Positions 3,027-25,410 of a stretch of DNA of 32,000 nt are shown in pieces. The stretch lies in the NCBI GenBank assembly GCA_035638855.1, contig DASQZD010000086.1, positions 55,422-87,421 of the forward strand, given 5' to 3'. The DNA is from Nodularia sp. (in: cyanobacteria) (GTDB lineage: Bacteria; Cyanobacteriota; Cyanobacteriia; Cyanobacteriales; Nostocaceae). The notes beneath the pieces were generated by a model. The model saw only the letters and a list, made by a program, of their open reading frames with translations. It was not told the origin of the DNA and searched no databases. Within the stretch, counting starts at the first letter, position 1. Each line of letters begins with the position of its first letter. Made by a program: the position numbers and the translations under genes.

Positions 3027-4022
3027 AAATTTCCTCTAAATACTAAATGTGTCAATCAATATTTTTTCACACAGAAGATTTTTAAACCAGGAGTTTACCC
3101 CATTGGTTGATCCTGTGTTTTTGCTACTCAGCAGGGCTATGGAATATCTAGACGGGCATACAACCAAACTATAGTTGTCTCTCATCTAACTTATACTTAA
3201 TTCCTTGCTGGCTGGTAAGTATTTAATCCTAGTGGTGTATTTGATTTTAACAGAAGGGGGTATTCTATAACAAGATTTGCTCTTGTCAATAATCTCCTAC
3301 TTTCTCAATCATCACCAATAATTAAATTATCAATTTTCAGTCACCTGTGAACACCCCTAAAAGTGTTGTATCAAAGTCGTCTACTGAGTTTAGCCCTTGA
3401 TTCGTTAAATTTGTCAAGTATAATTTATTTTGATCAACCGGAAAATTTGCACGAGTGCTATGACAATGCTCGAAAGATTCCACCTCAGAATGATCAGGTT
3501 ACACAAGCCGCATCATCAGAGTTTGAGGCGAGAATTTGAGCAAGGTACTTCTAAAGGTTGACAGATGTTTCACATCAAGTGAAACTTATTGTAGGTGTCT
3601 CTCAGTTAGGACTAGAACCCCAAAACCCTGTTTTTTTCCAGCAGGGGTTACTCCTGATATAGGGCTTTCAGCAAGTGTTACCGAAAGGTAAGTCTATTTT
3701 AATAGTCGTATAACAGGAAACTGCCAAGCTATAGGTCATTGGGTCTTGCCCTTTGGGTGGTTGAAAGCTATCTCCTTGATAGGATTAGCAGTTCACGAAA
3801 AAAAGATTAAATTGACTCATTATTAACATTCTGCCAAAGGCTGATCCTTTACCTTAGAAGGTGAGCAGGTGTGTTTTTTGCTATCCTTGTATGTCTTTGG
3901 TGAGTGAACCTAGCACGGCATTAGCTGATGATGCCGCTTTCCCAGAGAGCCAGTCTTGGTATCCGAAAATTCGGTACACTAAAACTGGTAAAAGGAAAGA
4001 ATTTTTTTTGAGAAACGGTTAA

Positions 4023-5387
<1,365 letters not shown>

Positions 5388-5448
5388 GTTAGTCTATAGT
5401 CTTTAGTCATTGGACTGAGCCTAGCTAACAAAGGATCATAAGTAATAA

Positions 5449-5485
5449 GTAGGGTGGGTTGTTGACTCACCCTACAATTGTTTTA
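5449..5485 (+). terminator. Intrinsic terminator downstream of petH
   Basis: A perfect 8-bp stem gtagggtg (5449..5456) pairs with caccctac (5468..5475) around an 11-nt loop. It is followed by aattgtttta. Confidence 0.55.
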
Positions 5486-5645
5486 TATGGACAGCTGAGA
5501 ACAGAGTTCTAAGTGCTTGATTCACCCACGGGAATTAATTCCTGGGGCTTATACCAACTAATTGATGATTAGTTGGCTCATTAGTATAAATCAGGAAGCA
5601 CTCAGAATGTTGCACTCAGCACTCAAAAATTAGGGTGTAAAATTT

Positions 5646-6932
5646 GTGGGAGTGAAACTAGGAATATTAGGTTTAGGCACTGTCGGCACGGGTACGGTGC
5701 AGTTACTGCAAGATTTGGTGGGACGTAACCCGTTATTGCAGTCCGTGGAAATATATCGAGTGGGAGTGCGATCGCTTGATAAAATTCGGGATGTAGAATT
5801 ACCTGTAGATGTCTTAACGACAGATTTAGAAGCCATTGTCAATGATCCGGCGGTAGATATTGTCGTGGAGTTAATCGGTGGACTCGAACCGGCGCGATCG
5901 CTGATTCTCCAAGCTTTAAACAATGGTAAACACGTCGTTACCGCCAATAAAGCTGCGATCGCGCGTTTTGGGGCAGAAATCTTTACAACTGCTAACCAAG
6001 CCGGGGTATATGTGATGTTAGAAGCGGCTGTAGGCGGTGGTATCCCAGTGATTCAACCCCTGAAGCAGTCCTTAAGCGTTAACCGTATTAATACTATTAC
6101 TGGCATCGTTAACGGTACAACAAATTACATCCTTACCAGGATGCAAACCGAAGGTAGCAACTTCAGCGATGTCTTAGCTGATGCCCAAAAATTAGGTTAC
6201 GCCGAAGCTGACCCCACGGCTGATGTAGACGGTTTAGATGCAGCTGATAAAATTGCCATCCTGGCATCATTAGGCTTTGATGGACGCATCAACCTAGAAG
6301 ATGTCTATTGTGAAGGAATTAGACAAGTCAGCAAGACAGATATTACCTATGCCGAAAAATTGGGATTTGTGATTAAATTATTAGCGATCGCTAAACAATA
6401 CAGCGACTCATCTCCCCTCTCAGTCAGAGTGCATCCCACCTTAGTACCCAAAGCACATCCATTAGCTAGCGTTAACGGTGTATATAATGCCATTCTCATC
6501 GAAGGAGAACCCATCGGGCAGGTAATGTTTTTTGGACCCGGTGCAGGTGCGGGTGCAACAGCCAGCGCCGTCACCTCAGATATCTTAAATTTAGTTGCTG
6601 TCCTCAAAACCAGTACAACCAACCCAAATCCACTCTTAACTTGTGGACACCAAGATTACTGTCAAATTGCCCCAATCACAGAACTAGTAACGCGATTTTA
6701 TGCCCGATTCCTCACCAAAGACCAACCAGGAGTTATTGGTAAATTGGGTACTTGCTTTGGCAACTATGGCGTTAGCTTAGAGTCAGTAGTCCAAACAGGC
6801 TTTCACGAAGGACTAGCAGAAATTGTGGTTGTCACCCGCGATGTGCGAGAAGGAGATTTTCGGCAAGCCCTAACAGAAATTCGCAATTTAGAAGCTATAG
6901 ATAGTATTCCCAGTTTACTGCGAGTGCTGTAA
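5646..6932 (+). CDS. hom: Homoserine dehydrogenase
   Basis: A GTG start leads into the Rossmann motif LGILGLGTVGTG. The motifs TANKA, GGIPVI, NGTTNYILT and YAEADPT..D..G.DAA.K are present, followed by a C-terminal ACT-like domain. Confidence 0.93.
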   Translation: MGVKLGILGLGTVGTGTVQLLQDLVGRNPLLQSVEIYRVGVRSLDKIRDVELPVDVLTTDLEAIVNDPAVDIVVELIGGLEPARSLILQALNNGKHVVTANKAAIARFGAEIFTTANQAGVYVMLEAAVGGGIPVIQPLKQSLSVNRINTITGIVNGTTNYILTRMQTEGSNFSDVLADAQKLGYAEADPTADVDGLDAADKIAILASLGFDGRINLEDVYCEGIRQVSKTDITYAEKLGFVIKLLAIAKQYSDSSPLSVRVHPTLVPKAHPLASVNGVYNAILIEGEPIGQVMFFGPGAGAGATASAVTSDILNLVAVLKTSTTNPNPLLTCGHQDYCQIAPITELVTRFYARFLTKDQPGVIGKLGTCFGNYGVSLESVVQTGFHEGLAEIVVVTRDVREGDFRQALTEIRNLEAIDSIPSLLRVL

Positions 6933-7112
6933 ATAGGCTCAGAAATTAGCAGGAGACAAGGTAGAACAGCATAAAGAGCAGGGTTCAGGGGGAAGACTTT
7001 GGGCGAGTGCGACAATCTTCTCTCTCTTTTTCCCAACTTCCCCACATCCCTTTAATTGCGAAAATATACATAAAAGCTATGTATTATAAAGAATAGCCTC
7101 TACCTCAAGAAC

Positions 7113-7544
7113 ATGGAACCTTTAACTGCTGCGATCGCCATTGGCTCTGTAGTCGCCACCAAAGCCTTAGAAAAAACAGGCGAAAAGGTAGGCGAAGTTT
7201 TATGGGACAAAACTATTCAGTTTCTTGTCAAGCTGAGAAAACACTTTCCTCAAACTGTAGTTGCAATTGAGAAAGCACCAGAACAACCCCTAGATTATGG
7301 CAAGGCTTTAATTGAGGTGGAATCTGCGGCGCAGGCTGATCCGGAAGTGGCACAAGCTGCACAGGAATTGGCAGCAGCAGCAAAAGCAGAAACACCATCC
7401 AATTTGAATGAAATTCTTATAGAAATAGCAGAAACACTTAAATCTCAATCTTCAACAAATCAGACCAGGATTGAAAGCATCGAGAAGATTGTTAACTTTG
7501 CTCAGAGAGATATTAATATTCAAACCCAAACCATAAATCTTTGA
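7113..7544 (+). CDS. N-terminal helical domain ORF of an NLR-like STAND gene, ended by an in-frame TGA
   Basis: The 143-aa product starts with a small-residue hydrophobic helix (MEPLTAAIAIGSVVATKA). The rest is A/E/Q-rich and looks helical. It is in the same frame as 7647..9896, with only the TGA at 7542..7544 between them. Confidence 0.5.
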   Translation: MEPLTAAIAIGSVVATKALEKTGEKVGEVLWDKTIQFLVKLRKHFPQTVVAIEKAPEQPLDYGKALIEVESAAQADPEVAQAAQELAAAAKAETPSNLNEILIEIAETLKSQSSTNQTRIESIEKIVNFAQRDINIQTQTINL

Positions 7545-7646
7545 CTGAAGTCGTCCGCCGGCGAACGGACAAAGTTAACTCCCACAAAATATATTCCTTA
7601 TCGTGGTTCGGTTCATTTTGTCGGACGTGAACAGGAACTGACACGA

Positions 7647-9896
7647 GTGCATGAAGACTTGCAGCGTGGAAATTATGTGGCAATATCAGGGATGGGAGGC
7701 GTAGGCAAAACCGAATTAGCTACCCAATACGCCAAAAGATATCAAGAGAGTTATGGCGGTATTGCTTGGTTCAATGATCGCAACAGTAATCTTGCTGCTG
7801 AAATTTTGGAGTTTTTTATCAAGCTTGGTTTGGAGATTCCCCAAGAACTAGGGGGAAAACTGTTAAGCCTAAAAGAACAAGTTGCTTGGTGTTGGTCTAG
7901 ATATCCTGACTCTACCTCGCCTATATTAATTGTCTTCGATGATGTCACAGACTTAGCCAACCTCCGCCAAGTCTTACCCGAAGACCAACGCTTTTGCGTT
8001 TTGGTGACAACTACACCACGAATTTTAGACCCGAATTTTATTCAAGAGATTTCTTTAGATGTTCTTTCTCCAGAAAAAGCATTAGAACTGTTAAAACGAT
8101 TGTTGGGAAACACAGACAGGCGAGTTGATAACCAATTAGAAGCTGCAACTGCAATATGTGAATGTCTGGGATATTTGCCTTTGGGGATAGAGTTAGTCGG
8201 AGGTTATTTAGTCCGCGACCCAGGACTATCTCTGAATACAATGTTTGAGAGGTTAAAAACCCAAAAATTAGCTGAAATATCTTTACAGCGAGAGCCAGAT
8301 TCTACCATTGGTCAAGCGCAACTGGGAGTCAAAGCAGCGTTTACCTTAACTTGGGAAAAACTTGACCCCCTCACACAACAATTAGGAAAATTTTTGAGTT
8401 TATTTGCTCCCCAACAGATTCTTTGGGATTTGGTGAATTGGGTGGCGACAGATGGTGGGAAAGCAGAAGATGAAGCAGCAACACAGCTAACTTGGTCACA
8501 AGAGGAAATAAACTCAGCCAAAAAGCAACTTTACGCACGTAACTTGCTGCAACTGGTAGAAGCTACAGAAGGAGAATATTATAAAATTCATGCTTTGGTG
8601 CGGTGGTTCTTGCAAGAACAGTTAACTAATTCTGGGGAAATAAAATCAGTTTTAGAAACAACCTTTGCTTCTGCCATGATATCTGTAGCTCATTACCTTC
8701 CCCAATCACCCACTTCTGAGGATATCGAAAGCGTCAAGGATGTTGTTCCCCATATTGAAGACTTAGGAAATAGGATAATTGCTGATATTCAGCCAGCAGG
8801 AGAAGCACAGATAAATTCTCCAGCATCAGTTCCCAATGATCAAGTAATTTGGATATTTGTAGGAGTAAGCAGATTTTATGCAGGACAAGGACTATATAAA
8901 TTAGCAGAACCTTGGCATGAGCAATGTGTAAATGTTTGCCAAGCTTTGTTTGCTGGCGACCATCCTGATGTGGCTACTAGCTTGAACAATTTAGGCGAAC
9001 TCTATCGTAGTCAAGGGCGGTACAGTCAAGCCGAACCTCTTTTCATTCAAGCCTTGGAGATGAAAGAGCGCTTGTTTGTCGGCGACCATTCCAATGTGGC
9101 TACTAGCTTGAACAATTTAGCTTTTCTCTACAAAAGTCAAGGGCGGTACAGTCAAGCCGAACCTCTTTTCATTCAAGCCTTGGAAATGACACAGCGCTTG
9201 TTTGCCGGCGACCATCCCAATGTCGCTACTAGCTTGAATAATTTAGGCGAACTCTATCGTAGTCAAGGGCGGTACAGTCAAGTCGAACCCCTCTTGATTC
9301 AAGCTTTGGAGATGACACAGCGCTTGTTTGTTGGCGACCATGCCAATGTCGCTACTAGTTGGAACAATTTAGCTCTACTCTACCGTGGTCAAGGGAAGTA
9401 CAGTGAAGCCGAACCTCTTTTCATTCAAGCCTTGGAGATGACACAGCGCTTGTTTGCCGGCGACCATTCTGATGTCGCTACTAGCTTGAACAATTTAGCC
9501 GAACTTTATCGTAGTCAAGGGCGGTACAGTCAAGCCGAACCCCTCTACAAAAAAGCCTTGGAGATGAGGCAGCGCTTGTTTGCCGGAGACCATCTTGATG
9601 TCGCTACTAGTTGGAACAATTTAGCTCTACTCTACCGTGGTCAAGGGAAGTACAGTGAAGCCGAACCTCTTTTCATTCAAGCCTTGGAAATGACACAGCG
9701 CTTGTTTGCCGACGACCATCCCAATGTCGCTACTAGCTTGAACAATTTAGCCGGACTCTACGACAGTCAAGGGCGGTACAGTGAAGCCGAACCCCTCTAC
9801 AAAAAAGCCTTGGAGATGTGTCAACGGGTATTAGGGGTTAATCATCCCACTACAGCGACAATTAAAGAAAACTTGGCAATTCTGCGACAACGTTAA
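7647..9896 (+). CDS. NB-ARC (STAND) NTPase with C-terminal TPR array; coding-like sequence continues upstream in frame to 7545
   Basis: The P-loop GMGGVGKTELA lies at 7689..7712. Other motifs are the Walker B-like LIVFDDV, the GLPLGIELVGGYL helical motif, and 7 full plus 1 partial 42-aa TPR units. The conserved pre-P-loop peptide YIPYRGSVHFVGREQELTRV is encoded at 7590..7646, upstream of the first canonical start (GTG at 7647). Confidence 0.8.
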   Translation: MHEDLQRGNYVAISGMGGVGKTELATQYAKRYQESYGGIAWFNDRNSNLAAEILEFFIKLGLEIPQELGGKLLSLKEQVAWCWSRYPDSTSPILIVFDDVTDLANLRQVLPEDQRFCVLVTTTPRILDPNFIQEISLDVLSPEKALELLKRLLGNTDRRVDNQLEAATAICECLGYLPLGIELVGGYLVRDPGLSLNTMFERLKTQKLAEISLQREPDSTIGQAQLGVKAAFTLTWEKLDPLTQQLGKFLSLFAPQQILWDLVNWVATDGGKAEDEAATQLTWSQEEINSAKKQLYARNLLQLVEATEGEYYKIHALVRWFLQEQLTNSGEIKSVLETTFASAMISVAHYLPQSPTSEDIESVKDVVPHIEDLGNRIIADIQPAGEAQINSPASVPNDQVIWIFVGVSRFYAGQGLYKLAEPWHEQCVNVCQALFAGDHPDVATSLNNLGELYRSQGRYSQAEPLFIQALEMKERLFVGDHSNVATSLNNLAFLYKSQGRYSQAEPLFIQALEMTQRLFAGDHPNVATSLNNLGELYRSQGRYSQVEPLLIQALEMTQRLFVGDHANVATSWNNLALLYRGQGKYSEAEPLFIQALEMTQRLFAGDHSDVATSLNNLAELYRSQGRYSQAEPLYKKALEMRQRLFAGDHLDVATSWNNLALLYRGQGKYSEAEPLFIQALEMTQRLFADDHPNVATSLNNLAGLYDSQGRYSEAEPLYKKALEMCQRVLGVNHPTTATIKENLAILRQR
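8946..9827 (+). repeat. Seven tandem 126-nt (42-aa) TPR-coding repeats with very high nucleotide identity
   Basis: The unit consensus is LFAGDHPNVATSLNNLAELYRSQGRYSQAEPLFIQALEMTQR. The 89 nt at 9348..9436 are identical to 9600..9688, exactly two periods (252 nt) apart. Confidence 0.9.
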
Positions 9897-10019
9897 TTCC
9901 CATTGCTACTTGGAAACGACGGCTCAATCAGTTTCTACAAATCTTACTGGGTATTGTAACTTTACCGTTTGATTTACTTTGGCAATTCGCTAAGAAAATA
10001 ATTCGTAATTAAAGGATTG

Positions 10020-10217
10020 GATAGAGCGATCGCCTATATTCTACAAGTTCCTGAGCCAGTGCGATCGCAGCAGCGAGAGAGCGATCGCAATATATAGCCG
10101 TAGCCATATCTGTTAGAACAGTGTTGATATCTCAAAACTTTACAGAGACTAAGTTTATACTCATAATTCAGAACTTTGCTATATGACTGAATTACAAAAA
10201 AGCGAGAGAGCGATCGC
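10020..10217. repeat. Intergenic cluster of four HIP1 (GCGATCGC) sites, with a duplicated 17-mer agcgagagagcgatcgc
   Basis: The HIP1-containing stretches are agagcgatcgcct (~10025), gtgcgatcgcagcagcgagagagcgatcgc (~10051-10087) and agcgagagagcgatcgcct (~10201-10219). Confidence 0.7.
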
Positions 10218-10305
10218 CTGAATTTATCACTGATAAAAAAAGACGCTCAAAGAGCGCCTTAACATACATGAATTATAGCTTTTGTCAACGGCTACATTGA
10301 AGATA

Positions 10306-10749
10306 TTAAGCTTCTGGAATATTTTTGCCCACAACTTGCGATTTCAGAGTAGTGATTTCACTAGTTAACTCTTTCCGAGTCGAGGCTTTGAGCAAATAGC
10401 GGTAAACAAACCAAGCAGAGTAGCCAATACCAATCAATTCAAAGGTCGGTGCTACTAAAGGAATATCATTTAAAGAATCTAATACCGCCAAGAGTACCTT
10501 AACCGAAACAATTGCTCCGACAATTAAACCAACGCTAACCAGGGGCTGCTTATATTGGTTAAAGAAGCTTCCCAGGTATTCGGGCAGTGTTGCTAAAAAA
10601 CCAGAAATTTGTTCCCCGTATTTTTGCCATTGCTCTTGAGACTGCACAGGAGGCTGGAGTTTGGTAATGCTTCCTGTTTGGTTGTTGATATTTGGCACTG
10701 CTGCCTCTTTCGATTGGGTTTGTGTGAATTCCGGTTCTTGCATTTTCAC
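10306..10749 (-). CDS. curT: CAAD-domain thylakoid membrane protein (CurT / CURT1-like)
   Basis: An N-terminal polar region is followed by YKQPLVSVGLIVGAIVSVKVLLAVLDSLNDIPLVAPTFELIGIGYSAWFVYRYLL. This is a two-helix CAAD hairpin, followed by an amphipathic tail. Confidence 0.75.
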   Translation of the reverse strand: MKMQEPEFTQTQSKEAAVPNINNQTGSITKLQPPVQSQEQWQKYGEQISGFLATLPEYLGSFFNQYKQPLVSVGLIVGAIVSVKVLLAVLDSLNDIPLVAPTFELIGIGYSAWFVYRYLLKASTRKELTSEITTLKSQVVGKNIPEA

Positions 10750-11468
10750 TCCTATAAATTTAACAGTTGAGTTTATCTAATCTGTGACAATTACAACCTA
10801 AAGGCTGTTGATTAGGCAATGCACGAGGGCATCAGTACAACTTGTGTTTGATCCACAAAAGGTTTTAGTCTCCTATAACCATAATTGCCTCATCAGCTAT
10901 ACTGCATCAACTACAAGGTAGACAGTCAGCATGAGAAGAAAAGTCAGAAGGCGGCAACATATCTTAAAATCAGCTTTCTGAGTTCTGGATTTTGTGAATC
11001 AAGACAGAATCCTCAATTTGTGATTATCCCATGCCGTGTCAGGTCAGTTATCTAAAGGTGAGGCACTCAGCCCCGGATCTTGAGATCGGGTTTCTGACAA
11101 ACTTACTCATTCAAGCACAAATCATGCCAAAATCAGACTACCTCACATTTATACAAGTTTAAACGCCGATTTTATCTGATATTAAAGCTATCTTAAGCCC
11201 TGTTCGTCAATTAGCTCATTGATCATTCATATTAATGTGTCAGCAAAGATTTTATGTATTCAAATATACTTATTAGCTTGAGTAATTGATCATATGGGTT
11301 TCTAGCTGAGGACAAGCAGACAATATTTTTGCCCAATCAGGAAAGTTATGTTTTTGCCCGTTAAATATTCTACTAGGGCAGAGTGAGGGATAATGCTTGG
11401 CAATAGGAATTTCTTTTATCCCCACACTCAGTCCCATTTAGCTTTTTCTACACTTCTATACGGCGGTA

Positions 11469-19427: not shown

Positions 19428-21206
19428 TTAACTTTTCCCTCTCCTCTTCCTTGGAGGCGGACTTTGTGAGAGGATAAAATGATCCGGTGAATCATTTTCC
19501 TGAGCAATGTTGAGACGCAGAAATTGCGCCCATACTTGATCACTAAGTAAGTTTAAAGCTGTTTCAGGTTGGTGAGATGCGATCGCATGGATAATTTTTC
19601 GCCATCCTTGCTGTAAGGCTTCCATAAAAATTTCCTCACCGGAAAGCTGACTCAGTAGAGAAAGTGCAGTTGCTAAACTTATTGAATTATCTAATATTTT
19701 TTGTGACGTTAAATCGTGAACTATGATATTTAACCACACTGGGAGAAGTTCCCACCAGTGGCTTGCTTGTATCTCCTGAAGTGCTAGATTTTGCATACCC
19801 AGCGCCCCCCAAATGCATAAAGCTTCTACAGCTAATTCAAAATCGTGTTTTTCTAAAGCAATATTCCATTGTTTTTGGGCATGATTTTGGCAACCATGAG
19901 CCAGAAATTGATATGCTTCTTCTACTTGCTTGGGAATAGTAACTTGATAAACAGACTCACCACATGGTAAATATTCGCCACCACAGTCAACCGAGTCATA
20001 AAAACCATAAAAATGAATTTCTTGATCAACTATAACTTCTTTAACATGGGAATTTCCCATACAGAAAAATTGTACAGATGGTAAACCCTCAGGAGTTTTG
20101 ATAGCGCGGAGTTTTTTTTCTACTTCTGCTTGTTCTGGCGAAATTCCATATCCAATTAAAATCCACACTCCGCTATTAGCTAATTTTTGTAAAAGCGTCA
20201 AAAATTCTTTATTGATAACAGCTTCACTCAAGGAAGGAGAATAGATAATAATTTGCCTTTTAGCAGAATTTAACACCTCTCGAAAAGCGGGAATAACTTC
20301 AGTATCGCCTAGTTTTAAAGCTCCTTGGCTAATTTTTTTTAGTCTAGATTCTATTTCGTCATTTTTATATTTCAGAGTGGCTTTACGCTCCAAATCAATG
20401 GATTCATTGGACAATTTACATAAAGATTGCCAAGGTATTTTACCTTTACCTTGCAGCACTTCCATTCGTTTTGATGCTGATTCTAAAATTTGCTTACCAT
20501 TTCTGATTTGGATACTCAATTTATCTTTCCCAGCATCCCAAATCACAAACAAAGATATGTTTTTCCAGATTATTTGCGCCGGGGCTAAAACCTTACATTT
20601 AGTAACAATTTTTCCTAATTCGGGGACATGAAAATCTAAACCTGACAACTGAATACATTTCTGTAACTTCTCAAGTGATAAAGCAGATATATCGTTAATC
20701 TTGCGAGCAATCTTGATAAATTCAGCTAAATCAGGTAAATTTAAAGGAGCATCATTGCATGGTTCAGCATGAAATATCAGCTTTCCGTCTAAAGCATCGG
20801 AAACTGCATATATTTGCATAGGATAAGTCGGCTGTGGTACAGAACCTTTAGCGTAAAAAGTCCGCCCTTCATCTGTAACTGTAATCGGCGATGTTGCGGA
20901 TAAAGTTTGTAATGTTTGCAAATTTGCAGTGGTACTGCGGACAAATATAGAATCAAGTCCTAATATAGATGCTAATTCATCTTCTGTGGGTGGAGGTGAA
21001 AATTCAATTCCAGCGCGGATAATAAATTCTTCAAGTAGATTAAATTCGCGCGGTTCCTGAATGGATAACTCTACAGGAGTTTGATGTAAACTATAACGAA
21101 ATTCCCTCGCAGCTAAAACTGATAAATCAGGATTTTGCGCTGTAATTTCCTCTACTAAATTTCTGAGTTTGTCGTCAATAGGTTTAGCCGCAGCAGCGAG
21201 AAACAT
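19428..21206 (-). CDS. wHTH + single-HKD phospholipase-D-family nuclease-like protein with C-terminal helical domain
   Basis: Residues 388-402 read H-V-K-E-V-I-V-D-QEIHFY-G, which fits HxK(x)4D(x)6G (nt 19995..20048). Upstream is the PLD-like strand/helix pattern RQIIIYSPSL...LQKLANSGVWILIGY. The N-terminus LEEFIIRAGIEFSPPPTEDELASILGLDSIFVRST looks winged-helix-like. The ATG at 21206 has AAGGAGG 8 nt upstream at 21215..21221. Confidence 0.7.
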   Translation of the reverse strand: MFLAAAAKPIDDKLRNLVEEITAQNPDLSVLAAREFRYSLHQTPVELSIQEPREFNLLEEFIIRAGIEFSPPPTEDELASILGLDSIFVRSTTANLQTLQTLSATSPITVTDEGRTFYAKGSVPQPTYPMQIYAVSDALDGKLIFHAEPCNDAPLNLPDLAEFIKIARKINDISALSLEKLQKCIQLSGLDFHVPELGKIVTKCKVLAPAQIIWKNISLFVIWDAGKDKLSIQIRNGKQILESASKRMEVLQGKGKIPWQSLCKLSNESIDLERKATLKYKNDEIESRLKKISQGALKLGDTEVIPAFREVLNSAKRQIIIYSPSLSEAVINKEFLTLLQKLANSGVWILIGYGISPEQAEVEKKLRAIKTPEGLPSVQFFCMGNSHVKEVIVDQEIHFYGFYDSVDCGGEYLPCGESVYQVTIPKQVEEAYQFLAHGCQNHAQKQWNIALEKHDFELAVEALCIWGALGMQNLALQEIQASHWWELLPVWLNIIVHDLTSQKILDNSISLATALSLLSQLSGEEIFMEALQQGWRKIIHAIASHQPETALNLLSDQVWAQFLRLNIAQENDSPDHFILSQSPPPRKRRGKS

Positions 21207-24200
21207 CAACGAAACCTCCTTGACTATCTACAGTATGAGAAATCTCTAAATACATACTTCCGACTTTTCCCCCTTGACGGGTAAATAAATCGTGACAACC
21301 CACAATTACGAGTAATTCTTGGGCGCGAGAAAAAGCCACATTCACCCGTTCTGGTTTCTTTGCAAAACCGACATCACCTTGATGATTATTCCGCACCATA
21401 CTTACTATTACCACAGCGCGTTCCATTCCCTGAAATCTATCAACTGTACCTGTGCGAATTTCCAGCGAAGGAAAAAGTTCAGATTGTAAACGTTCATCAA
21501 TTTTTTTCAATTGCGCGCCATAGAATGTAATTACTGCAATTTCCTTTTTTGGTTCCCCATTGGCAATTTTAGCAGCCCAAGTATGCTCGAATTGCTGACA
21601 CAGGCGTTCAATGACATCAATTTCACGAGTATTAAAATAAGAAGTATTTTCCCGTTCTTCTTCAAATTCCAGTTCTCTGGGAATTTTTACCCATACCAGA
21701 TGGTGATTTTTTTGGATAATTTCCCCTGTTAAATTATGGGCGCGTTGAGTGTCAGGTTCTAAAAGTCCACATTCTAGTTTACCCTGATAAAACTGATTAA
21801 TCGCCCCCATAATAAAGGGGTGCATTCTATATTGTGTATTCAGCATTTGTTTGATGCTTTTATCAGCAGCTTCAAACTGAATTTTAAATAATGATTCTTC
21901 TAAAAATTGCAGTTCGGATTTGCTACTGCCAAGTGATTGGGCAACTTCTTCAACTGTGCTAGTATCAAGCATGGGTGGTAATTGTCGATGGTCTCCTACC
22001 AAGACTAACTTTTTACCTTTTAAAGCTGGGATGAGTAACTCTGGTGGAGTACATTTACTAACTTCATCGATGATGACGACATCAAAGGCTTTAAATTCTT
22101 GGGAAAAGTTGTAATTTGCAGCTTGTACGCAAGTGATACCGACGACGTTAGCGTTATCTAAATAAATGCGTCTTAAATCGTTGCGATCGCGCTCTGATGG
22201 ATTTTTAACTTTTGCAATCCAATCTTTGGTAAAATCCTGGTATCGGCTGAGATAAGTTTCTTCTTGATTCAGTTGGTTTTCCCAAGCATCAAACTGAGTT
22301 TTGATATTGTGTAAAAATTCCAGATTAAATAAATCTGTAGGGATATTTTCTGGCTGAAATTTATCAGGTATGTTTTTACAGAAATTTTCCCACCAATTTC
22401 TTGATAAAATTAAATCTTCGGTTGGTTGTATCTGTAGTTGCTGATCTAATTTATTGAGTTGGGCTTGGATTTTTTTGAGTTGCTTTTGAGCAAGTGCGTT
22501 TTCTTGTTCTATAATTGTTATTTGCTCATCTAAAGACGTTTTGATGTTTTCTAAGACTTGGAAAGGTGCAATTGATGAAATTAAAGTTTCTAAATTGCTA
22601 AGATGAGTAACCGCAGCATTCACCTGAGTTGCAAATTCTGAAGAATCTTCCCAAATTTTTGATTGCGTAGTCAGATATTCTGTAACTAAAGCCCGCAATT
22701 TATCAGGGAGATTTTGCTGCTGGTTGAGTAATTGCAAAATCTCGATAACTTGTGTAAGCTTGATATTAGCTGCTTCGATTTGAGATGAAGTCGCAGATAT
22801 TTGTGCTTGAGTAGTTCTGTGTTTTTCAAGTTCAATTAATTGCTGTTGGAAAGACTCAAGCTGTTGTTCAGTTTCAGCCTTAACTCGTGCGATACATTGA
22901 CGCGCATTTGCGAGGATATTGGTGAGTAAGTCTTCACTAACTTGTTTAATAGTAGAGTCGAGATTATTTAATTCCCAGGCTTTACCATATACTGTTTGCA
23001 TTCTCAGCAAAAACAACTGCGTATGTTCCACCAGTAATTGGCGCTGATGTGGGTTGAGGAGTTGATAATTTTTGAACTCTTCATAGATTTTACGCCATTG
23101 AGTGCGATCGCTCGCACATAGCACAATGGGAATTTGACTAAAATTTTGCTCTAAAAAGTAACTAAAATTATATTGTTTACCGATTCTATCAGCGAAGCCG
23201 CCCTCAGTCTCATAAGTCAAGGCTTTTTGTAAAGCCTTCCAATCTGGGAAATTAAGCTGATATTTTTTTGCTACTATAGTTAATTTTAATTGATTAGCAA
23301 ACATCAACAAACCCAATGGTAATTGCAGCAAATCTTCTGTTAATACTTGTCCTGATTGCTGGCATTCCTTAACTATTTGATATAATATCACAGGTGCTGT
23401 AGACTTCCATTCCTTAATAGCTGCAATCACATAATCAATTTCGCGTTGGCGATTTTGCCAACCTTGAATTGTCTGCTGTAAAATTTGCCGCTTGGCGATA
23501 AATTGCTGTTCATCTATTTCTGGTGAATTCAGATTTTGAGAATTTTGGGGGATAGCCGATACCGCTTCTGCAACTTCCGACATTACTAAAATGGCATCCT
23601 CTGCGTAATCGAATGCTATTCTAAAGTCAGCAATTTTATCAGCTACACTGTCACGCAACCAAACAGCCAACCCAAAAGCACCATAAGCAGGACGCACTAA
23701 ACCAAGTTCATCAGTCCACTTGATAGCTTCACGAACATTGGTTAAAAATTCTTTAACTACAATATTATCTTCTGTATATGGCTGAAGATATGGTAAACAA
23801 TTTGTGACTTCTGAAGCTTCCCAATTTATATTCGCTGCATTTTCTAGGAGATAATCTAAACCTAAATTGATAGATTCCACCTGCTTTTTCTTATTTAAAC
23901 TTTCCTGATAAATTTTTTCTTGAATTTTACAGTCTGCTGCTAAACTTTCCTTTTCCTGATTTAATTGATTTTCTTGGTGATTTAGCTCTAATTCTAGGTT
24001 AAAATAATCTGTAAATCTTGGTATTGCTGCCAATAATTCACTCAATATTTTAACATTTTCCAGACGTTTATTAAGACTACTTTCACAGTCAGTCGCCGTA
24101 TTTTCCAGCCATGTTTCAATAACTTGGTCTTCTAAAAATGGCTGTCCTTCCTCCCCAACTCTCTCCGCGCGTCCTTTACGTACAGCCCGAATAACTGGGT

Positions 24201-25410
24201 TATGAACTAATCGACTCAAAGCATTATCCACAGCTAAATTAGCTTGAGAAGCGATGAGAGTACGTCCACCCCGCAGGGCTATTTGATAACAAATCTCGGC
24301 AATCACGGTAGTTTTACCAGTACCTGGCGGTCCTTGAATAAGAACCAAATCTTCAGATGCTAATACCTTTTCCACTGCTGCTTTTTGTCCAGCATTAGCA
24401 GAAGATAATAACAAATCATCCGCTTGAAGTTCCACAGTTTTTTTCATCCGTCTTGCTTGGGAAGCGTCGAATAAAAAGTTACCCAAGTAGGGATTTTGAG
24501 TTTGTCCGTGTTTTAGTTGTTCTAAAGCTTCTTTCTTGCGCCGAACTTGTTGAATATCCCCAGCAGCATCAAAAAATAAAAATCCCTTCACTGGTGGCTG
24601 ATAACGTTGTGTAGCGATATATTCAGCTAATTCTCGTTCTAATTTAACTTTAATTAAACAATTTTTCGGATCAACTTTTTCAATTGAACCAAATCTAGGA
24701 ATTTTATGAGTAAATTTTCCTGTAGGAACAGTTTCCGAAAGTTTCACTTCTTGGTTTTTTGAACGTTTCACCCGTTCCCAGAAACTAGCGACATTTAAAT
24801 AATTTTGTTCAGAACCATCAAGAGTAGCTGAATTCACATCTACTTCAAAAGTAATTTGTCTGGTATTATTTCCATAATCATTACCGATAAAAGCTACACA
24901 AAACTGACGGGCTTTCGCAATATTTTCCTCAACTTGCAAAAAAGCTTTCCAAGCTTGCAATTGGTCTTCCGTAGGTATATGATCACCACACACTGGCATC
25001 TTTTCCACACGTGACAATGCTGCTTTGGGAATACCTAAACGATGTTGCTCATGAGGTAAAAGACGTAAACGAAAAGGAACAGCATAACCATCAGTGTGTC
25101 CCCGTGAAACTTGTAATAAACGAGTAGATAAAATTTTTAAACCACCGCGCCCATCTTCTTGAATAGCTGCAATTAAACCTAAAGTTTTGCCTTGCTTTTC
25201 CAGCTTTACAGGTAAGGGAAAATCATCTCTATCAGTTGCAATTGTTAACTGCCAAATTTCCTCATTTGGATTTTTTCCCGCACCTTGACGACGCACATAA
25301 AACAAATAAACTTGATCAGCTAATAAGTCTATTATCTCATCTTTAGCCACTGCTCCGACGCACTTATAGCTCCAGCTTTCTGAATTGTGATTGTTAGAAA
25401 AAGTGGGCAT
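21184..25410 (-). CDS. Upf1/Dna2-like superfamily-1 helicase (AAA_11/AAA_12 type) with ~330-aa unknown N-domain and ~700-aa coiled-coil insertion
   Basis: - Motif I: LIQGPPGTGKTT (nt 24307..24333).
- Motif Ia: TLIASQANLAVDNA.
- Motif II: VVIIDEVSK (DE at 22063..22068, residue ~1115).
- Motif III: LVLVGDHRQLPP.
- Motif IV: YRMHP.
- Motif V: TVDRFQGMERAVVIVS.
- Motif VI: RVNVAFSRAQ. Confidence 0.85.
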   Translation of the reverse strand: MPTFSNNHNSESWSYKCVGAVAKDEIIDLLADQVYLFYVRRQGAGKNPNEEIWQLTIATDRDDFPLPVKLEKQGKTLGLIAAIQEDGRGGLKILSTRLLQVSRGHTDGYAVPFRLRLLPHEQHRLGIPKAALSRVEKMPVCGDHIPTEDQLQAWKAFLQVEENIAKARQFCVAFIGNDYGNNTRQITFEVDVNSATLDGSEQNYLNVASFWERVKRSKNQEVKLSETVPTGKFTHKIPRFGSIEKVDPKNCLIKVKLERELAEYIATQRYQPPVKGFLFFDAAGDIQQVRRKKEALEQLKHGQTQNPYLGNFLFDASQARRMKKTVELQADDLLLSSANAGQKAAVEKVLASEDLVLIQGPPGTGKTTVIAEICYQIALRGGRTLIASQANLAVDNALSRLVHNPVIRAVRKGRAERVGEEGQPFLEDQVIETWLENTATDCESSLNKRLENVKILSELLAAIPRFTDYFNLELELNHQENQLNQEKESLAADCKIQEKIYQESLNKKKQVESINLGLDYLLENAANINWEASEVTNCLPYLQPYTEDNIVVKEFLTNVREAIKWTDELGLVRPAYGAFGLAVWLRDSVADKIADFRIAFDYAEDAILVMSEVAEAVSAIPQNSQNLNSPEIDEQQFIAKRQILQQTIQGWQNRQREIDYVIAAIKEWKSTAPVILYQIVKECQQSGQVLTEDLLQLPLGLLMFANQLKLTIVAKKYQLNFPDWKALQKALTYETEGGFADRIGKQYNFSYFLEQNFSQIPIVLCASDRTQWRKIYEEFKNYQLLNPHQRQLLVEHTQLFLLRMQTVYGKAWELNNLDSTIKQVSEDLLTNILANARQCIARVKAETEQQLESFQQQLIELEKHRTTQAQISATSSQIEAANIKLTQVIEILQLLNQQQNLPDKLRALVTEYLTTQSKIWEDSSEFATQVNAAVTHLSNLETLISSIAPFQVLENIKTSLDEQITIIEQENALAQKQLKKIQAQLNKLDQQLQIQPTEDLILSRNWWENFCKNIPDKFQPENIPTDLFNLEFLHNIKTQFDAWENQLNQEETYLSRYQDFTKDWIAKVKNPSERDRNDLRRIYLDNANVVGITCVQAANYNFSQEFKAFDVVIIDEVSKCTPPELLIPALKGKKLVLVGDHRQLPPMLDTSTVEEVAQSLGSSKSELQFLEESLFKIQFEAADKSIKQMLNTQYRMHPFIMGAINQFYQGKLECGLLEPDTQRAHNLTGEIIQKNHHLVWVKIPRELEFEEERENTSYFNTREIDVIERLCQQFEHTWAAKIANGEPKKEIAVITFYGAQLKKIDERLQSELFPSLEIRTGTVDRFQGMERAVVIVSMVRNNHQGDVGFAKKPERVNVAFSRAQELLVIVGCHDLFTRQGGKVGSMYLEISHTVDSQGGFVDVSRCCG

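Follow-up and report, generated by a model that had tools for sequence, protein, structure and literature searches.

A conserved in-frame UGA and RNA hairpin point to probable stop-codon read-through in a cyanobacterial amyloid-signaling NLR gene

Results

Comparative sequence analysis suggests that positions 7113-9896 of the 32-kb window (the whole stretch of Nodularia sp. DNA analyzed here) probably form a single translational unit, a Bell/BASS5 amyloid-signaling NLR recoded by UGA read-through. The split-ORF feature at these positions is real and far beyond chance.

Organization of the split gene

The N-terminal ORF of the Bell type (7113..7541, forward strand; 143 codons) starts with ATG and is terminated by the TGA at 7542-7544. 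This conserved in-frame UGA is the candidate recoding site (7542..7544, forward strand) and is followed by C at 7545. The post-TGA frame, the same as that of the N-terminal ORF, is open from 7545 to the TAA at 9894-9896 (783 codons), and the TGA is all that separates the 143-aa ORF from the NB-ARC/TPR frame. The earliest ATG, GTG or TTG after the TGA is the GTG at 7647 (codon 35), located 3' of the FVGRE strand (codons 25-29, 7617-7631). The intervening 34 codons (7545..7646, forward strand) lack any of these start codons, yet are coding and include LTPTKYIPYRGSVHFVGREQEL, the N-terminal strand/helix of NB-ARC. The initial annotation had regarded the two ORFs as one frame-continuous unit with an effector-like helical N-terminal domain, an NB-ARC domain and TPR repeats, and the ORF layout, an AF2 model and Pfam searches agree with this description.

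The post-TGA frame encodes an NB-ARC NTPase domain (7632..8303, forward strand; Pfam PF00931, E=2.5e-13, residues 30-253 of the post-TGA translation), with the Walker A motif GMGGVGKT at 7689-7712, in frame and 144 nt 3' of the stop, and a TPR sensor array (8841..9893, forward strand; Pfam TPR_10, E=2.2e-98, and TPR_12, E=8e-93). The TPR-coding DNA is a tandem repeat at 8946-9818, with a period of 126 nt, 6.9 copies and 83% matches (TRF). Both hallmarks of an NLR-like STAND NTPase, the P-loop NB-ARC and the C-terminal repeat sensor, are therefore found in the window gene. Its earlier assignment to the Avs group is not supported: in the PADLOC search, there was no match to the Avs/AVAST models, only a generic TPR match and weak, sub-threshold ones, and no bNACHT or other specific defense system was found in the window gene; the Bell/BASS amyloid-signaling NLRs fit instead. 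The post-TGA frame has neither a second BASS motif at the receptor N-terminus nor a start codon there, so that read-through of the UGA would be required for the receptor to carry a motif.

The N-terminal ORF

By sequence criteria, the N-terminal ORF is a Bell-type helical domain with a C-terminal BASS5-type amyloid motif. The protein starts with MEPLT (MEPLTAAIAIGSVVA), and the E at position 2 fits the acidic position 2-3 of the MEPIS-type Bell start; the 'MEPIS' N-terminal motif is described for Bell/Hell domains (Ibarlosa et al. 2024, bioRxiv 10.1101/2024.11.07.622273). Bell domains (Dyrka et al. 2020) are helical bundles of about 100-120 aa whose N-terminal helix is hydrophobic. AF2 models the ORF as entirely helical (pLDDT 75), with a predicted bundle spanning residues 1-~127 and a tail (residues 128-143) of pLDDT below 50 that is predicted to be disordered. 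Relatives of this ORF number 289 in cyanobacterial species genomes. Over residues 1-79, the ORF shares 93-96% identity with the Bell ORFs of three related loci (L044, L052 and L063; shared core, residues 1-~94), the tails and NLR partners of which match the BASS5 pair published for Nodularia sp. NIES-3585. The ORF had no family matches in Pfam, and a Foldseek search of its model against the PDB returned nothing at E<=0.001, the Bab fold 9H9V not being among the matches; we therefore call it 'Bell' on the grounds of its N-terminal motif and its homology to published Bell partners. The topology of the Bell fold is reported to be variable (Ibarlosa et al. 2024, bioRxiv 10.1101/2024.11.07.622273).

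The putative amyloid motif, the N/Q/I-rich C-terminal segment IESIEKIVNFAQRDINIQTQTINL (7470..7541, forward strand), was identified by similarity to a published motif: Table S2 of Dyrka et al. lists IEKIVNFSQRDIN as the Bell-side BASS5 motif of Microcystis GBE95752.1, to which IEKIVNFAQRDINIQTQTINL is identical at 12 of 13 residues. The C-terminal motif expected of the effector in a BASS pair is thus present, in a region predicted by AF2 to be disordered, and it ends at the same residue as in the stand-alone homolog P0024.

Conservation of the in-frame UGA

All 51 distinct junctions from GTDB cyanobacterial species genomes contain TGA, as do all 47 junctions from cyanobacterial metagenomes, which were retrieved by a search pattern that left the stop codon unspecified. 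Likewise, TGA lies 5' of 56 of the 57 matches to the covariance model R1, which was built solely from the 48 nt 3' of the stop. Neither TAA nor TAG nor a functional sense codon was found at any of these 51 genome and 47 metagenome junctions, although a change from TGA to TAA would preserve termination. The sole sense-codon variant, TCA (Ser) in locus L136, belongs to a truncated copy with a broken hairpin and a missing P-loop. Ordinary long ORFs of the same loci end with TAA (53%), TAG (25%) or TGA (23%), and the separate-gene form uses TAA in 21 cases and TAG and TGA in 5 cases each. The base following the UGA (+4) is C in 44 of the 51 junctions (86%) and U in none, whereas C follows only 9% of the TGA codons that end ordinary long ORFs. 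UGA is the stop codon most prone to read-through, which is suppressed by +4U and, in yeast, increased by +4C (PMC5289835). Overall, a single type of stop codon occupies a fixed position ahead of an open downstream frame under purifying selection.

An in-frame stop in an otherwise intact multidomain ORF has the look of a young pseudogene, and some of the related loci are genuinely damaged, by an IS insertion (L001) or by extra stops (L018, L036 and L077). Nevertheless, the reading of the window gene as inactivated or artifactual, through recent nonsense mutation, faulty sequencing or decay, is already refuted by the comparative data and retains next to no probability. About 100 diverged loci, spread over many cyanobacterial genera, have the stop at exactly this position, with downstream frames that are open and subject to purifying selection, which is incompatible with the very recent nonsense mutation envisaged in the initial annotation. 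The suggested sequencing error fares no better, given those loci and an independent assembly of public reads (Logan SRR6048907, locus L140) that is 100% identical to positions 6350-9017 of the window, TGA included. The syntenic ortholog from Nodularia chucula (L005, ~91% nucleotide identity) has TGA CTG at the same site. Alignment of orthologs thus shows the TGA kept at the position of 7542 with no functional sense codon, so that the notion of an ancestral single ORF of 927 codons finds no functional relative to support it. Among the three explanations put forward in the initial annotation, the comparative evidence favors the third, read-through.

A conserved RNA element downstream of the UGA

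Immediately after the stop lies a conserved RNA element of 48 nt (7545..7592, forward strand), CUR NAG UCG YCC GAN NGG GAA CGG RNA AAG UUA AMU CCC, which scores 65.3 bits with covariance model R1 and is present in a single copy in the 32-kb window. The entropy of third codon positions is close to 0 at codons 2-15, compared to 1.0-1.6 at the invariant F-V-G codons 25-27; the freezing of synonymous sites is confined to these ~45 nt (codons 2-15). In one locus (L019), the RNA element is kept despite the peptide there being in a shifted frame.

The element includes a 5-bp hairpin, GUCCG/CGGAC, with an 8-nt loop (7553-7557/7566-7570, forward strand) that begins 8 nt after the UGA. The hairpin was already noted in the window sequence (gtccg-N8-cggac, 7553..7570), and covariation across the junctions shows that it is real. 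RNAalifold, applied to 49 junctions, recovers it independently; 98% of the alignment cells are paired, 24 of them compensatory. Compensatory double changes occur at three of the five pairs, and pair 2 is UA in 27 sequences, CG in 19 and UG in 3, with none broken. None of 500 shuffles reached the hairpin score, and slid controls pair at just 11-41%. Folding of the window sequence by itself was not significantly better than that of shuffled sequences (z = -0.56). The features expected of a stimulatory context are present, namely, +4C in 86% of the junctions, a covarying hairpin and frozen synonymous sites.

A conserved hairpin close behind a UGA is also the layout of a bacterial SECIS, which, when read by SelB, would direct insertion of selenocysteine. 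We consider selenocysteine highly improbable here. The Sec trait is reported in the literature as not detected in Cyanobacteria; no homolog has Cys at the UGA site, the lone sense variant being the Ser of the decayed copy; the site falls in a linker, not a redox center; and the hairpin loop begins 13 nt after the UGA. A search of positions 7300-7800 against Rfam produced no match to SECIS or to any other family.

Allelic exchange with a two-gene form

BLAST collinearity of the window with loci L044, L052 and L063 is lost at window position 7417 and regained at 7573, with flanks that are 90-94% identical, whereas the N. chucula ortholog is collinear with the window throughout. The swapped cassette (7400..7572, forward strand) comprises the motif, UGA and hairpin, in place of which the close relatives have motif-TAA-spacer-ATG-motif. 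Specifically, the layout in these three loci is Bell..KLADKIGQVVMPGGTGNIQNQSF-TAA, a spacer of 125-338 nt, and MFNDSGKLADKIGAFAAPGSQVNI..QKQLTPTKYIP-NLR, and their motif pair is the BASS5 pair of Nodularia sp. NIES-3585 (GAX34748.1/GAX34747.1; Dyrka et al.). The window and the N. chucula ortholog have a single motif and the UGA-hairpin, joined at the same LTPTK. Thus, the one-motif UGA cassette interchanges allelically with a two-motif cassette at the orthologous locus, and the nearest alternative state of this locus is the two-gene Bell-BASS5 / BASS5-NLR pair. The cassette is also found 5' of NB-ARC, NACHT, CHAT-like/TPR, CHASE2, FGE-sulfatase and PsbP-like modules; such modularity fits a portable N-terminal effector-plus-recoding unit.

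Its location at a boundary of module exchange raises the alternative that the 48 nt serve some DNA- or RNA-level function other than decoding: a joint at which recombination shuffles effector and sensor modules, an internal promoter, or a site where A-to-I editing converts UGA to UGG. A weak promoter-like match, CGGACA-18-TATATT, does occur at 7566-7595, but it agrees at only 9 of 12 positions, and the region contains 12 such matches against 5.6 expected. Neither a recombination site nor a promoter needs an invariant in-frame UGA, +4C, a strictly open frame 0 or base-pair covariation. The editing motif of TadA is U-A-C-G in a hairpin loop, which the UGAC outside the loop does not fit. Altogether, a role of this kind appears very unlikely.

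Translation of the downstream frame

In the stretch from the TGA to the first in-frame start (1726 codons across the loci), frame 0 has no stops, compared to 115 and 96 in the other two frames, and dN/dS over codons +15..+60 is 0.06-0.19. The 102 nt after the stop are therefore coding, as initially proposed. The post-UGA frames remain open for 200-1230 aa across the loci. An SD-like motif follows the UGA in none of the 51 loci, and the first start codon lies 3' of the FVGR strand in 28 of the 38 NB-ARC loci. These patterns indicate frame-0 translation of the sequence 3' of the UGA, with no independent start. The UGA junctions do not resolve into two genes with starts and SD motifs of their own, and the segment 7545..7646 is highly conserved, in keeping with the single unit originally suggested.

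Alternatively, ribosomes might always terminate at the UGA and produce a motif-free NLR by coupled re-initiation on or close to the codon that follows (CUG, CUA or GUG), with the hairpin holding the ribosome. The stop abuts the next ORF, as in coupled genes; gene callers annotate two genes; GUG, which gives a start at codon 1, directly follows the UGA in 3 of the 51 genome and 2 of the 47 metagenome junctions, where re-initiation is possible and which count against read-through; and CUG, the first codon in ~40% of the junctions, is a rare table-11 start. However, CUA accounts for another ~40%, and the rest includes CCA, CCG, CUC, CUU, GAA and AUC, none of which are start codons; nor does the lack of SD-like motifs fit. 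Because any stop codon would do for re-initiation, this alternative leaves the 100% UGA with +4C unexplained. Furthermore, a motif-free NLR could not substitute for the two-motif allele of the orthologous locus. We therefore regard re-initiation as unlikely.

Discussion

Proposed mechanism

Under the read-through model, a dedicated recoding cassette, consisting of the UGA, +4C and the 5-bp hairpin within the frozen 45 nt, would fuse the usual pair of Bell-BASS and BASS-NB-ARC-TPR genes. Most ribosomes would stop at the UGA and yield an abundant, free 143-aa Bell-BASS effector, whereas a minority would read through and yield a rare 927-aa Bell-BASS-NB-ARC-TPR receptor, most simply by means of near-cognate tRNA-Trp. 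The occurrence of read-through, its efficiency and the amino acid inserted are inferred. Because both products would derive from one ORF, the receptor motif would be exactly that of the free effector, and it would take the place of the separate copy found in canonical receptors. HET-S/NWD2, the published BASS pairs and Bab/Agp offer an analogy for the subsequent steps: the TPR array would sense a ligand, upon which NB-ARC would oligomerize; the clustered receptor motifs would nucleate the amyloid fold and template the motif of the abundant free effector; and templating would free the N-terminal helix of Bell for membrane attack, killing the infected cell. It is from this analogy that we infer amyloid templating, membrane attack and the immune role.

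Several observations sit less comfortably with this scheme. The hairpin is small, at 5 bp, and we know of no established bacterial precedent for hairpin-stimulated stop read-through without SelB. Formation of an amyloid nucleus by oligomerization is also less obvious where the cassette precedes non-NTPase modules (CHASE2, PsbP-like).

A variant of the scheme is a conditional switch, whereby the NLR fusion is made only when termination at UGA is perturbed by phage suppressor tRNAs, RF2 inhibition or depletion, or stress. The comparative evidence for read-through applies to it equally, UGA is decoded by RF2 alone, and Cyanobacteria reportedly show the pattern seen in species with RF1 > RF2 (PMC5289835), which is in its favor. 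Conversely, a ligand sensor is already supplied by TPR, NACHT or other modules, and the neighborhoods of 60 loci showed no suppressor tRNA. We deem such a switch improbable.

On balance, we lean toward a dedicated read-through element in filamentous and colonial cyanobacteria that allows one ORF to encode both prion-like immune partners, is portable among at least six kinds of sensor modules and is allelic with the two-gene form. If a single ORF indeed supplies the pair, the rate of read-through would set the stoichiometry of executioner to nucleator. The status of termination in infected cells might possibly also influence receptor synthesis.

Comparison with known systems

The closest relatives are the Bell/BASS5 NLR pairs (Dyrka et al. 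2020, bioRxiv 10.1101/2020.01.06.895854), with which the window gene has in common the Bell-type N-terminal domain, the motif family and the NB-ARC-TPR receptor clade. In the published pairs, effector and receptor are separate ORFs that have individual motifs (43-56% identical to one another), individual starts and any stop, whereas the window has one motif, no receptor start, an invariant in-frame UGA and a conserved RNA hairpin. The pair table of that work lacks the class-A motif strings, and neither stop codons nor read-through are mentioned there (Dyrka et al. 2020, bioRxiv 10.1101/2020.01.06.895854).

The effector of E. coli Bab/Agp is likewise small, helical and Bell-related, with a 'MEPIS'-type start and an amyloid motif at its C-terminus (Ibarlosa et al. 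2024, bioRxiv 10.1101/2024.11.07.622273). This effector is activated by an adjacent, motif-sharing sensor, and antiphage abortive infection was shown experimentally (bioRxiv 10.1101/2024.11.07.622273); however, the sensor is TPR-GreA/B-PIN, not an NLR, and the two genes involve no recoding. Avs and bNACHT STAND NTPases share the tripartite layout of effector, NTPase and repeat sensor, and Avs2 and bNACHT02/11/23 have a MEPIS-type N-terminal helix (Ibarlosa et al., bioRxiv 10.1101/2024.11.07.622273). The window differs from them in its NB-ARC and TPR_10/12 array, typical of cyanobacterial NLRs, and in the setting apart of the effector by the UGA cassette.

The fungal HET-S/NWD2 and 'all-in-one' HeLo-NLR systems follow the same logic, the effector being either fused to the NLR or separate with a shared prion-forming motif, although they belong to another kingdom and have other folds. 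The putative read-through product would be an all-in-one form that retains the motif. To our knowledge, there is no case of fused and separate effector forms produced from one ORF by recoding.

Programmed read-through is exemplified by phage Qbeta A1 (UGA), MuLV gag-pol (UAG, with a pseudoknot 8 nt downstream) and the UGA-CUA of alphaviruses and mammals. Such cases share with the window a leaky UGA, C or CUA next to it, RNA structure ~8 nt downstream and a minor, extended, distinct product, but are viral or eukaryotic. Bacterial selenoprotein genes, too, have an in-frame UGA and a conserved hairpin inside the coding sequence; the window differs in its lack of Cys homologs and of an Rfam match and in the linker position of the UGA. 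In the literature searched, we found no description of a conserved chromosomal read-through element across a bacterial immune-gene family.

If correct, the read-through model implies a widespread, sequence-defined, selenocysteine-independent recoding signal in bacterial chromosomal genes, programmed read-through in bacteria being otherwise nearly confined to phages. It would also represent a new encoding of an amyloid signaling pair, with a single motif for both partners and a built-in low ratio of receptor to effector; with the motif shared, effector and receptor motifs would not need to co-evolve, and there would be no cross-talk between paralogs. Hundreds of cyanobacterial annotations of a 'hypothetical protein' next to an N-terminally truncated NB-ARC/NACHT protein would become single recoded genes, and many 'orphan' Bell proteins would be assigned receptors. 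The element is compact, at 48 nt, and the one-motif UGA and two-motif forms make up a natural allelic series at one locus.

A reading frame interrupted by a single TGA

The N-terminal ORF (N-ORF) runs on the forward strand from an ATG at 7113 through 143 codons to a TGA at 7542-7544, and the same frame continues (7545-9896, forward strand) without a stop until the TAA at 9894-9896. Its post-TGA translation contains an NB-ARC domain (Pfam, E=2.5e-13), in which GMGGVGKT is the Walker A motif, and a long array of TPR_10/TPR_12 repeats. The hairpin GTCCG-N8-CGGAC (7553-7570, forward strand) lies 8 nt 3' of the TGA. The region 6350-9017 is 100% identical, TGA included, in the Logan assembly of read set SRR6048907. 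Thus, the ORF coordinates, the Pfam matches and the identical assembly bear out the initial annotation of one frame split only by a TGA with a hairpin behind it. The 102 nt after the stop indeed lack ATG, GTG and TTG, the first in-frame start being the GTG at 7647 (codon 35), 3' of the FVGRE strand. PADLOC assigned no specific defense system.

The TPR sensor (8946-9818) is a tandem array of 6.9 copies of a 126-nt unit (83% identity), and identity rises to 90% for a super-period of 252 nt; because nucleotide similarity between the repeats is unusually high, this suggests recombination-driven diversification of the sensor. Elsewhere in the window (19428-25410, reverse strand), a 593-aa ORF without a Pfam match overlaps the beginning of a 1408-aa ORF that resembles SF1 helicases (AAA_30 and AAA_11/AAA_12), and the two may constitute another defense-type gene pair.

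The N-ORF matched no Pfam family, and a Foldseek search of its AF2 model, a predicted helical bundle whose tail (about 16 residues) is disordered, against the PDB gave no significant match. The protein starts with MEPLT, and a 'MEPIS'-type start has been reported for the Bell/Hell membrane-targeting domains (Ibarlosa et al. 2024, bioRxiv 10.1101/2024.11.07.622273). Its tail, IEKIVNFAQRDINIQTQTINL, is identical in 12 of 13 positions to the Bell-side motif of Microcystis GBE95752.1 in the amyloid signaling family BASS5 (Dyrka et al. 2020, bioRxiv 10.1101/2020.01.06.895854, Table S2). By its sequence, the N-ORF is assigned to the family named Bell in the literature, which is abundant in Nostocaceae.

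Conservation of the stop codon among cyanobacteria

A protein search with the N-terminal 280 residues of the fused translation retrieved many N-ORF homologs that stand alone as proteins of 154-172 aa, and many NB-ARC proteins starting just past the junction. A scan of the N-domain alignment against one genome per GTDB species identified 289 relatives, every one cyanobacterial. The loci of 80 of these were fetched and sorted into class A, with the TGA, the hairpin and one motif, versus class B, the two-gene Bell-BASS5/BASS5-NLR form, and others. Class A comprises 51 distinct junctions, including that of the window, and the N-ORF ends with TGA in all of them. The next codon is mostly CTG or CTA (otherwise CCA, CCG, CTC, CTT, GTG, GTA, GAA or ATC), and nearly all junctions keep the frame past the TGA open over 200-1230 codons. 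An in-frame Walker A motif lies 144-180 nt past the TGA, with no stop between, in 32 distinct junctions. In the 31 loci of class B and others, by comparison, the N-ORF stops are TAA (21), TAG (5) and TGA (5), and in the 19 of these with a downstream Walker A motif found within 3 kb, this motif is about 240-725 nt from the stop (2832 nt in one), in any frame and with stops between. No fetched genome locus carries a sense codon in place of the junction stop.

Class A was detected in Nodularia, Nostoc, Anabaena, Calothrix, Tolypothrix, Aulosira, Brasilonema, Scytonema, Stigonema, Iningainema, Aetokthonos, Rhizonema, Moorena, Okeania and Dapis, as well as in MAGs of Microcystaceae, Merismopediaceae and Xenococcaceae. 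Judging from this distribution, the stop is not recent. The recent nonsense mutation or sequencing error considered in the initial annotation is at odds with both the conservation of the TGA across relatives and the identical SRR6048907 assembly; a pseudogene or artefact is refuted by the comparative data and has next to no probability.

Two further samples were obtained with probes that exclude the stop. JGI metagenomes were searched with a 26-nt pattern derived only from sequence 3' of the stop; of the 50 matches, 3 were GC-rich chance matches in unrelated DNA, and all 47 others have a TGA exactly 7 nt 5' of the pattern, the codon after it being CTG (22), CTA (22), GTG (2) or ATC (1). Upstream ORFs match the N-ORF family HMM in 34 of these 47, and most others also start with MEP. 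A covariance model built from the 48 nt after the stop was run over 629 kb of loci, none of which, except the window, had been used in building it. It gave 57 matches, 56 with a TGA directly 5', no match in class-B loci and a single one in the entire 32-kb window (7545-7592). The lone exception, which is also the weakest match, carries TCA, its stem is broken, and its downstream ORF is truncated and lacks the P-loop; the corresponding protein, P0100 (Ser at the junction), was rejected as a genuine sense variant and is a decayed remnant. Another apparent variant, the public metagenome protein P0063 with Trp at the junction (L135, 589-591), has TGA in the DNA, the gene caller having used a TGA=Trp code. 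The element was absent from the viral contigs searched. Three contigs carry two complete Bell-UGA-hairpin-NLR systems in tandem (L087 at 4007/9651, L094 at 6333/10411 and L132 at 5189/8116).

Stop codon context

Among 199 long ORFs of the same loci, the stops are TAA in 53%, TAG in 25% and TGA in 23%, and C follows TGA in only 9%. The class A stop is TGA in 100%, with C at position +4 in 44 of 51 junctions (G in 6, A in 1, U in none). According to PMC5289835, +4U reduces read-through, +4C increases it (as measured in yeast), and prfB makes use of UGA-C as its weak stop; the class A context is that of a weak stop. A TGA-to-TAA transition would preserve the stop yet is never seen; therefore, termination alone is not what is selected.

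The junction at 7539-7545, CUU UGA C, matches the heptamer at which prfB undergoes +1 frameshifting. Frameshifting here was rejected, since the +1 frame contains many stops and CUU is missing in most related loci, which have AUU, AAC or UUU before the UGA.

No suppressor tRNA or tRNA-Sec genes were found near 60 loci, and an Rfam search of 7300-7800 gave sub-threshold chance matches only, with no SECIS. Selenocysteine insertion at the UGA is highly improbable, given that the Sec trait is reported in the literature to be absent from Cyanobacteria and that there are no Cys homologs. One locus (L116, 773-2344) carries an array of 16 tRNA genes about 5 kb from its TGA-hairpin element, none with an opal-suppressor anticodon.

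The RNA element behind the UGA

The consensus is UGA CUR NAG UCG YCC GAN NGG GAA CGG RNA AAG UUA AMU CCC. Third-codon-position entropy is close to 0 for most of codons 2-15, where Ser is encoded only by UCG/CCG and 25 of 26 Arg codons are CGG, whereas it reaches 1.0-1.6 bits at codons 25-27, the invariant Phe-Val-Gly. Constraint therefore acts on the nucleotides in the first 45 nt and on the protein in the later codons. In one locus (L019), a 1-nt loop insertion alters the peptide and the nucleotide element is kept; in another (L083), the stem is kept and the loop is shorter.

The 5-bp hairpin of the initial annotation was recovered as the sole helix predicted by RNAalifold from 49 junctions. 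In this alignment, 98% of the hairpin cells are paired, and double compensatory changes occur at three of the five base pairs; at the second, 27 sequences have U-A, 19 have C-G and 3 have U-G, and none breaks the pair. Its score was reached by 0 of 500 shuffles, and pairing falls to 11-41% when the 3' arm is slid. Folding of the window sequence alone was not better than shuffles and points to a window-specific alternative fold; the case for the predicted hairpin is wholly comparative. A possible pseudoknot between the loop GGG and the downstream CCC (88% paired, almost invariant) shows no covariation, and a possible outer helix, in which UUGACU would pair with AGUUAA and bury the stop (84% paired), shows no compensatory change. 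The AGUUAA complementary to the stop-containing UUGACU is part of the segment AAAG UUA AMU CCC 3' of the hairpin (7575-7589; columns 45-57 of alignment A3), which is frozen at synonymous sites.

An internal promoter at 7566-7595 was rejected, since the sequence matches only weakly (9/12) and similar matches abound in this region. In locus L091 (7320-7410), ARAGORN reports a 'tRNA-???' (4-nt anticodon) that coincides with the element but lies on the other strand; the hairpin has probably given rise to a spurious call.

Translation of the post-UGA stretch

From the TGA to the first canonical start codon in the same frame (1726 codons), frame 0 contains no stops, against 115 and 96 for the two alternative frames. 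Codons +15 to +60 have a dN/dS of 0.06-0.19 in eight pairwise comparisons of gap-free stretches, the Bell core and codons +60 to +180 being left out because indels put them out of register. A start codon directly follows the stop in only 3 of 51 junctions, the first start is 3' of the invariant FVGR strand in 28 of 38 NB-ARC-type loci, and a Shine-Dalgarno-like motif 5' of the codon after the stop is absent at every class A junction. By these criteria, the post-UGA stretch appears to be translated from upstream and not from its own start.

Programmed UGA read-through, which would yield two products from one ORF, is the explanation we moderately favor; the mechanistic steps beyond conservation are those that we infer. 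Termination followed by re-initiation is unlikely, as it fails on the CUA and CCA next codons, the absent Shine-Dalgarno motif and the UGA specificity. Still less likely is read-through acting as an inducible switch. Other DNA- or RNA-level roles of the element do not jointly explain the frame, the stop type and the covariation, and are very unlikely.

Public annotations show two genes, the second starting at a GTG right after the stop or at an internal start 30-35 codons on. In the Tolypothrix sp. PCC 7601 plasmid NZ_CP064885 (L139, 3939-4028), the RefSeq 'PsbP-related protein' starts 90 nt past the TGA, the Bell ORF is a hypothetical protein and the conserved in-frame element is left intergenic; the cassette is also present on mobilizable plasmids.

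Allelic exchange with the two-gene form

The Nodularia chucula ortholog (L005) is collinear with window positions 3735 to 10929 at about 91% identity and keeps the TGA junction. Three other relatives (Nodularia sp. UHCC 0506, Anabaena sp. CCY 0017 and one MAG) are collinear on both sides (90-94%), with collinearity stopping at 7417 and restarting at 7573. In these three two-gene relatives (L044, L052 and L063), the swapped segment consists of a Bell tail ending in KLADKIGQVVMPGGTGNIQNQSF, a TAA, a 125-338 nt spacer and an ATG, after which the NLR N-terminus reads MFNDSGKLADKIGAFAAPGSQVNI..IQGQKQLTPTKYIP. The same motif pair is given as BASS5 for Nodularia sp. NIES-3585 (Dyrka et al.). Given the orthologous flanks around a swapped segment, motif-stop-spacer-start-motif and motif-UGA-hairpin are therefore interchangeable at one locus. 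Both alleles rejoin the receptor at the same LTPTK, and the class A receptor could carry a motif only through read-through of the UGA. The spacers of the two-gene form (L003, 3700-3990, and L044, L052 and L063) contain G/C-run palindromes of the cccccttaaaaaggggg type; because spacer length differs between orthologous loci from 125 to 338 nt, small repeat insertions are suggested.

Novelty and modules behind the cassette

Neither the Bell/BASS paper nor the Bab/Agp paper mentions stop codons or read-through, the class A motif strings are not in the published pair table (Dyrka et al.), and a full-text literature search on read-through or recoding with Bell, BASS, cyanobacteria, NLR or amyloid signaling returned nothing relevant. 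What seems to be new here is an amyloid-signaling NLR pair built with a conserved putative recoding cassette, which is of interest as sharply defined, widespread and directly testable.

The NB-ARC/TPR modules behind the cassette belong to several clades, and the other modules found there are NACHT with HEAT and NCC-H, CHAT-like plus TPR, CHASE2, FGE-sulfatase and PsbP-like membrane proteins. In Nostoc sp. FACHB-892 (L001, 5182-6242), the NLR is broken after 390 codons by an IS630-like HTH and DDE_3 transposase, and the TPR part resumes beyond the insertion.
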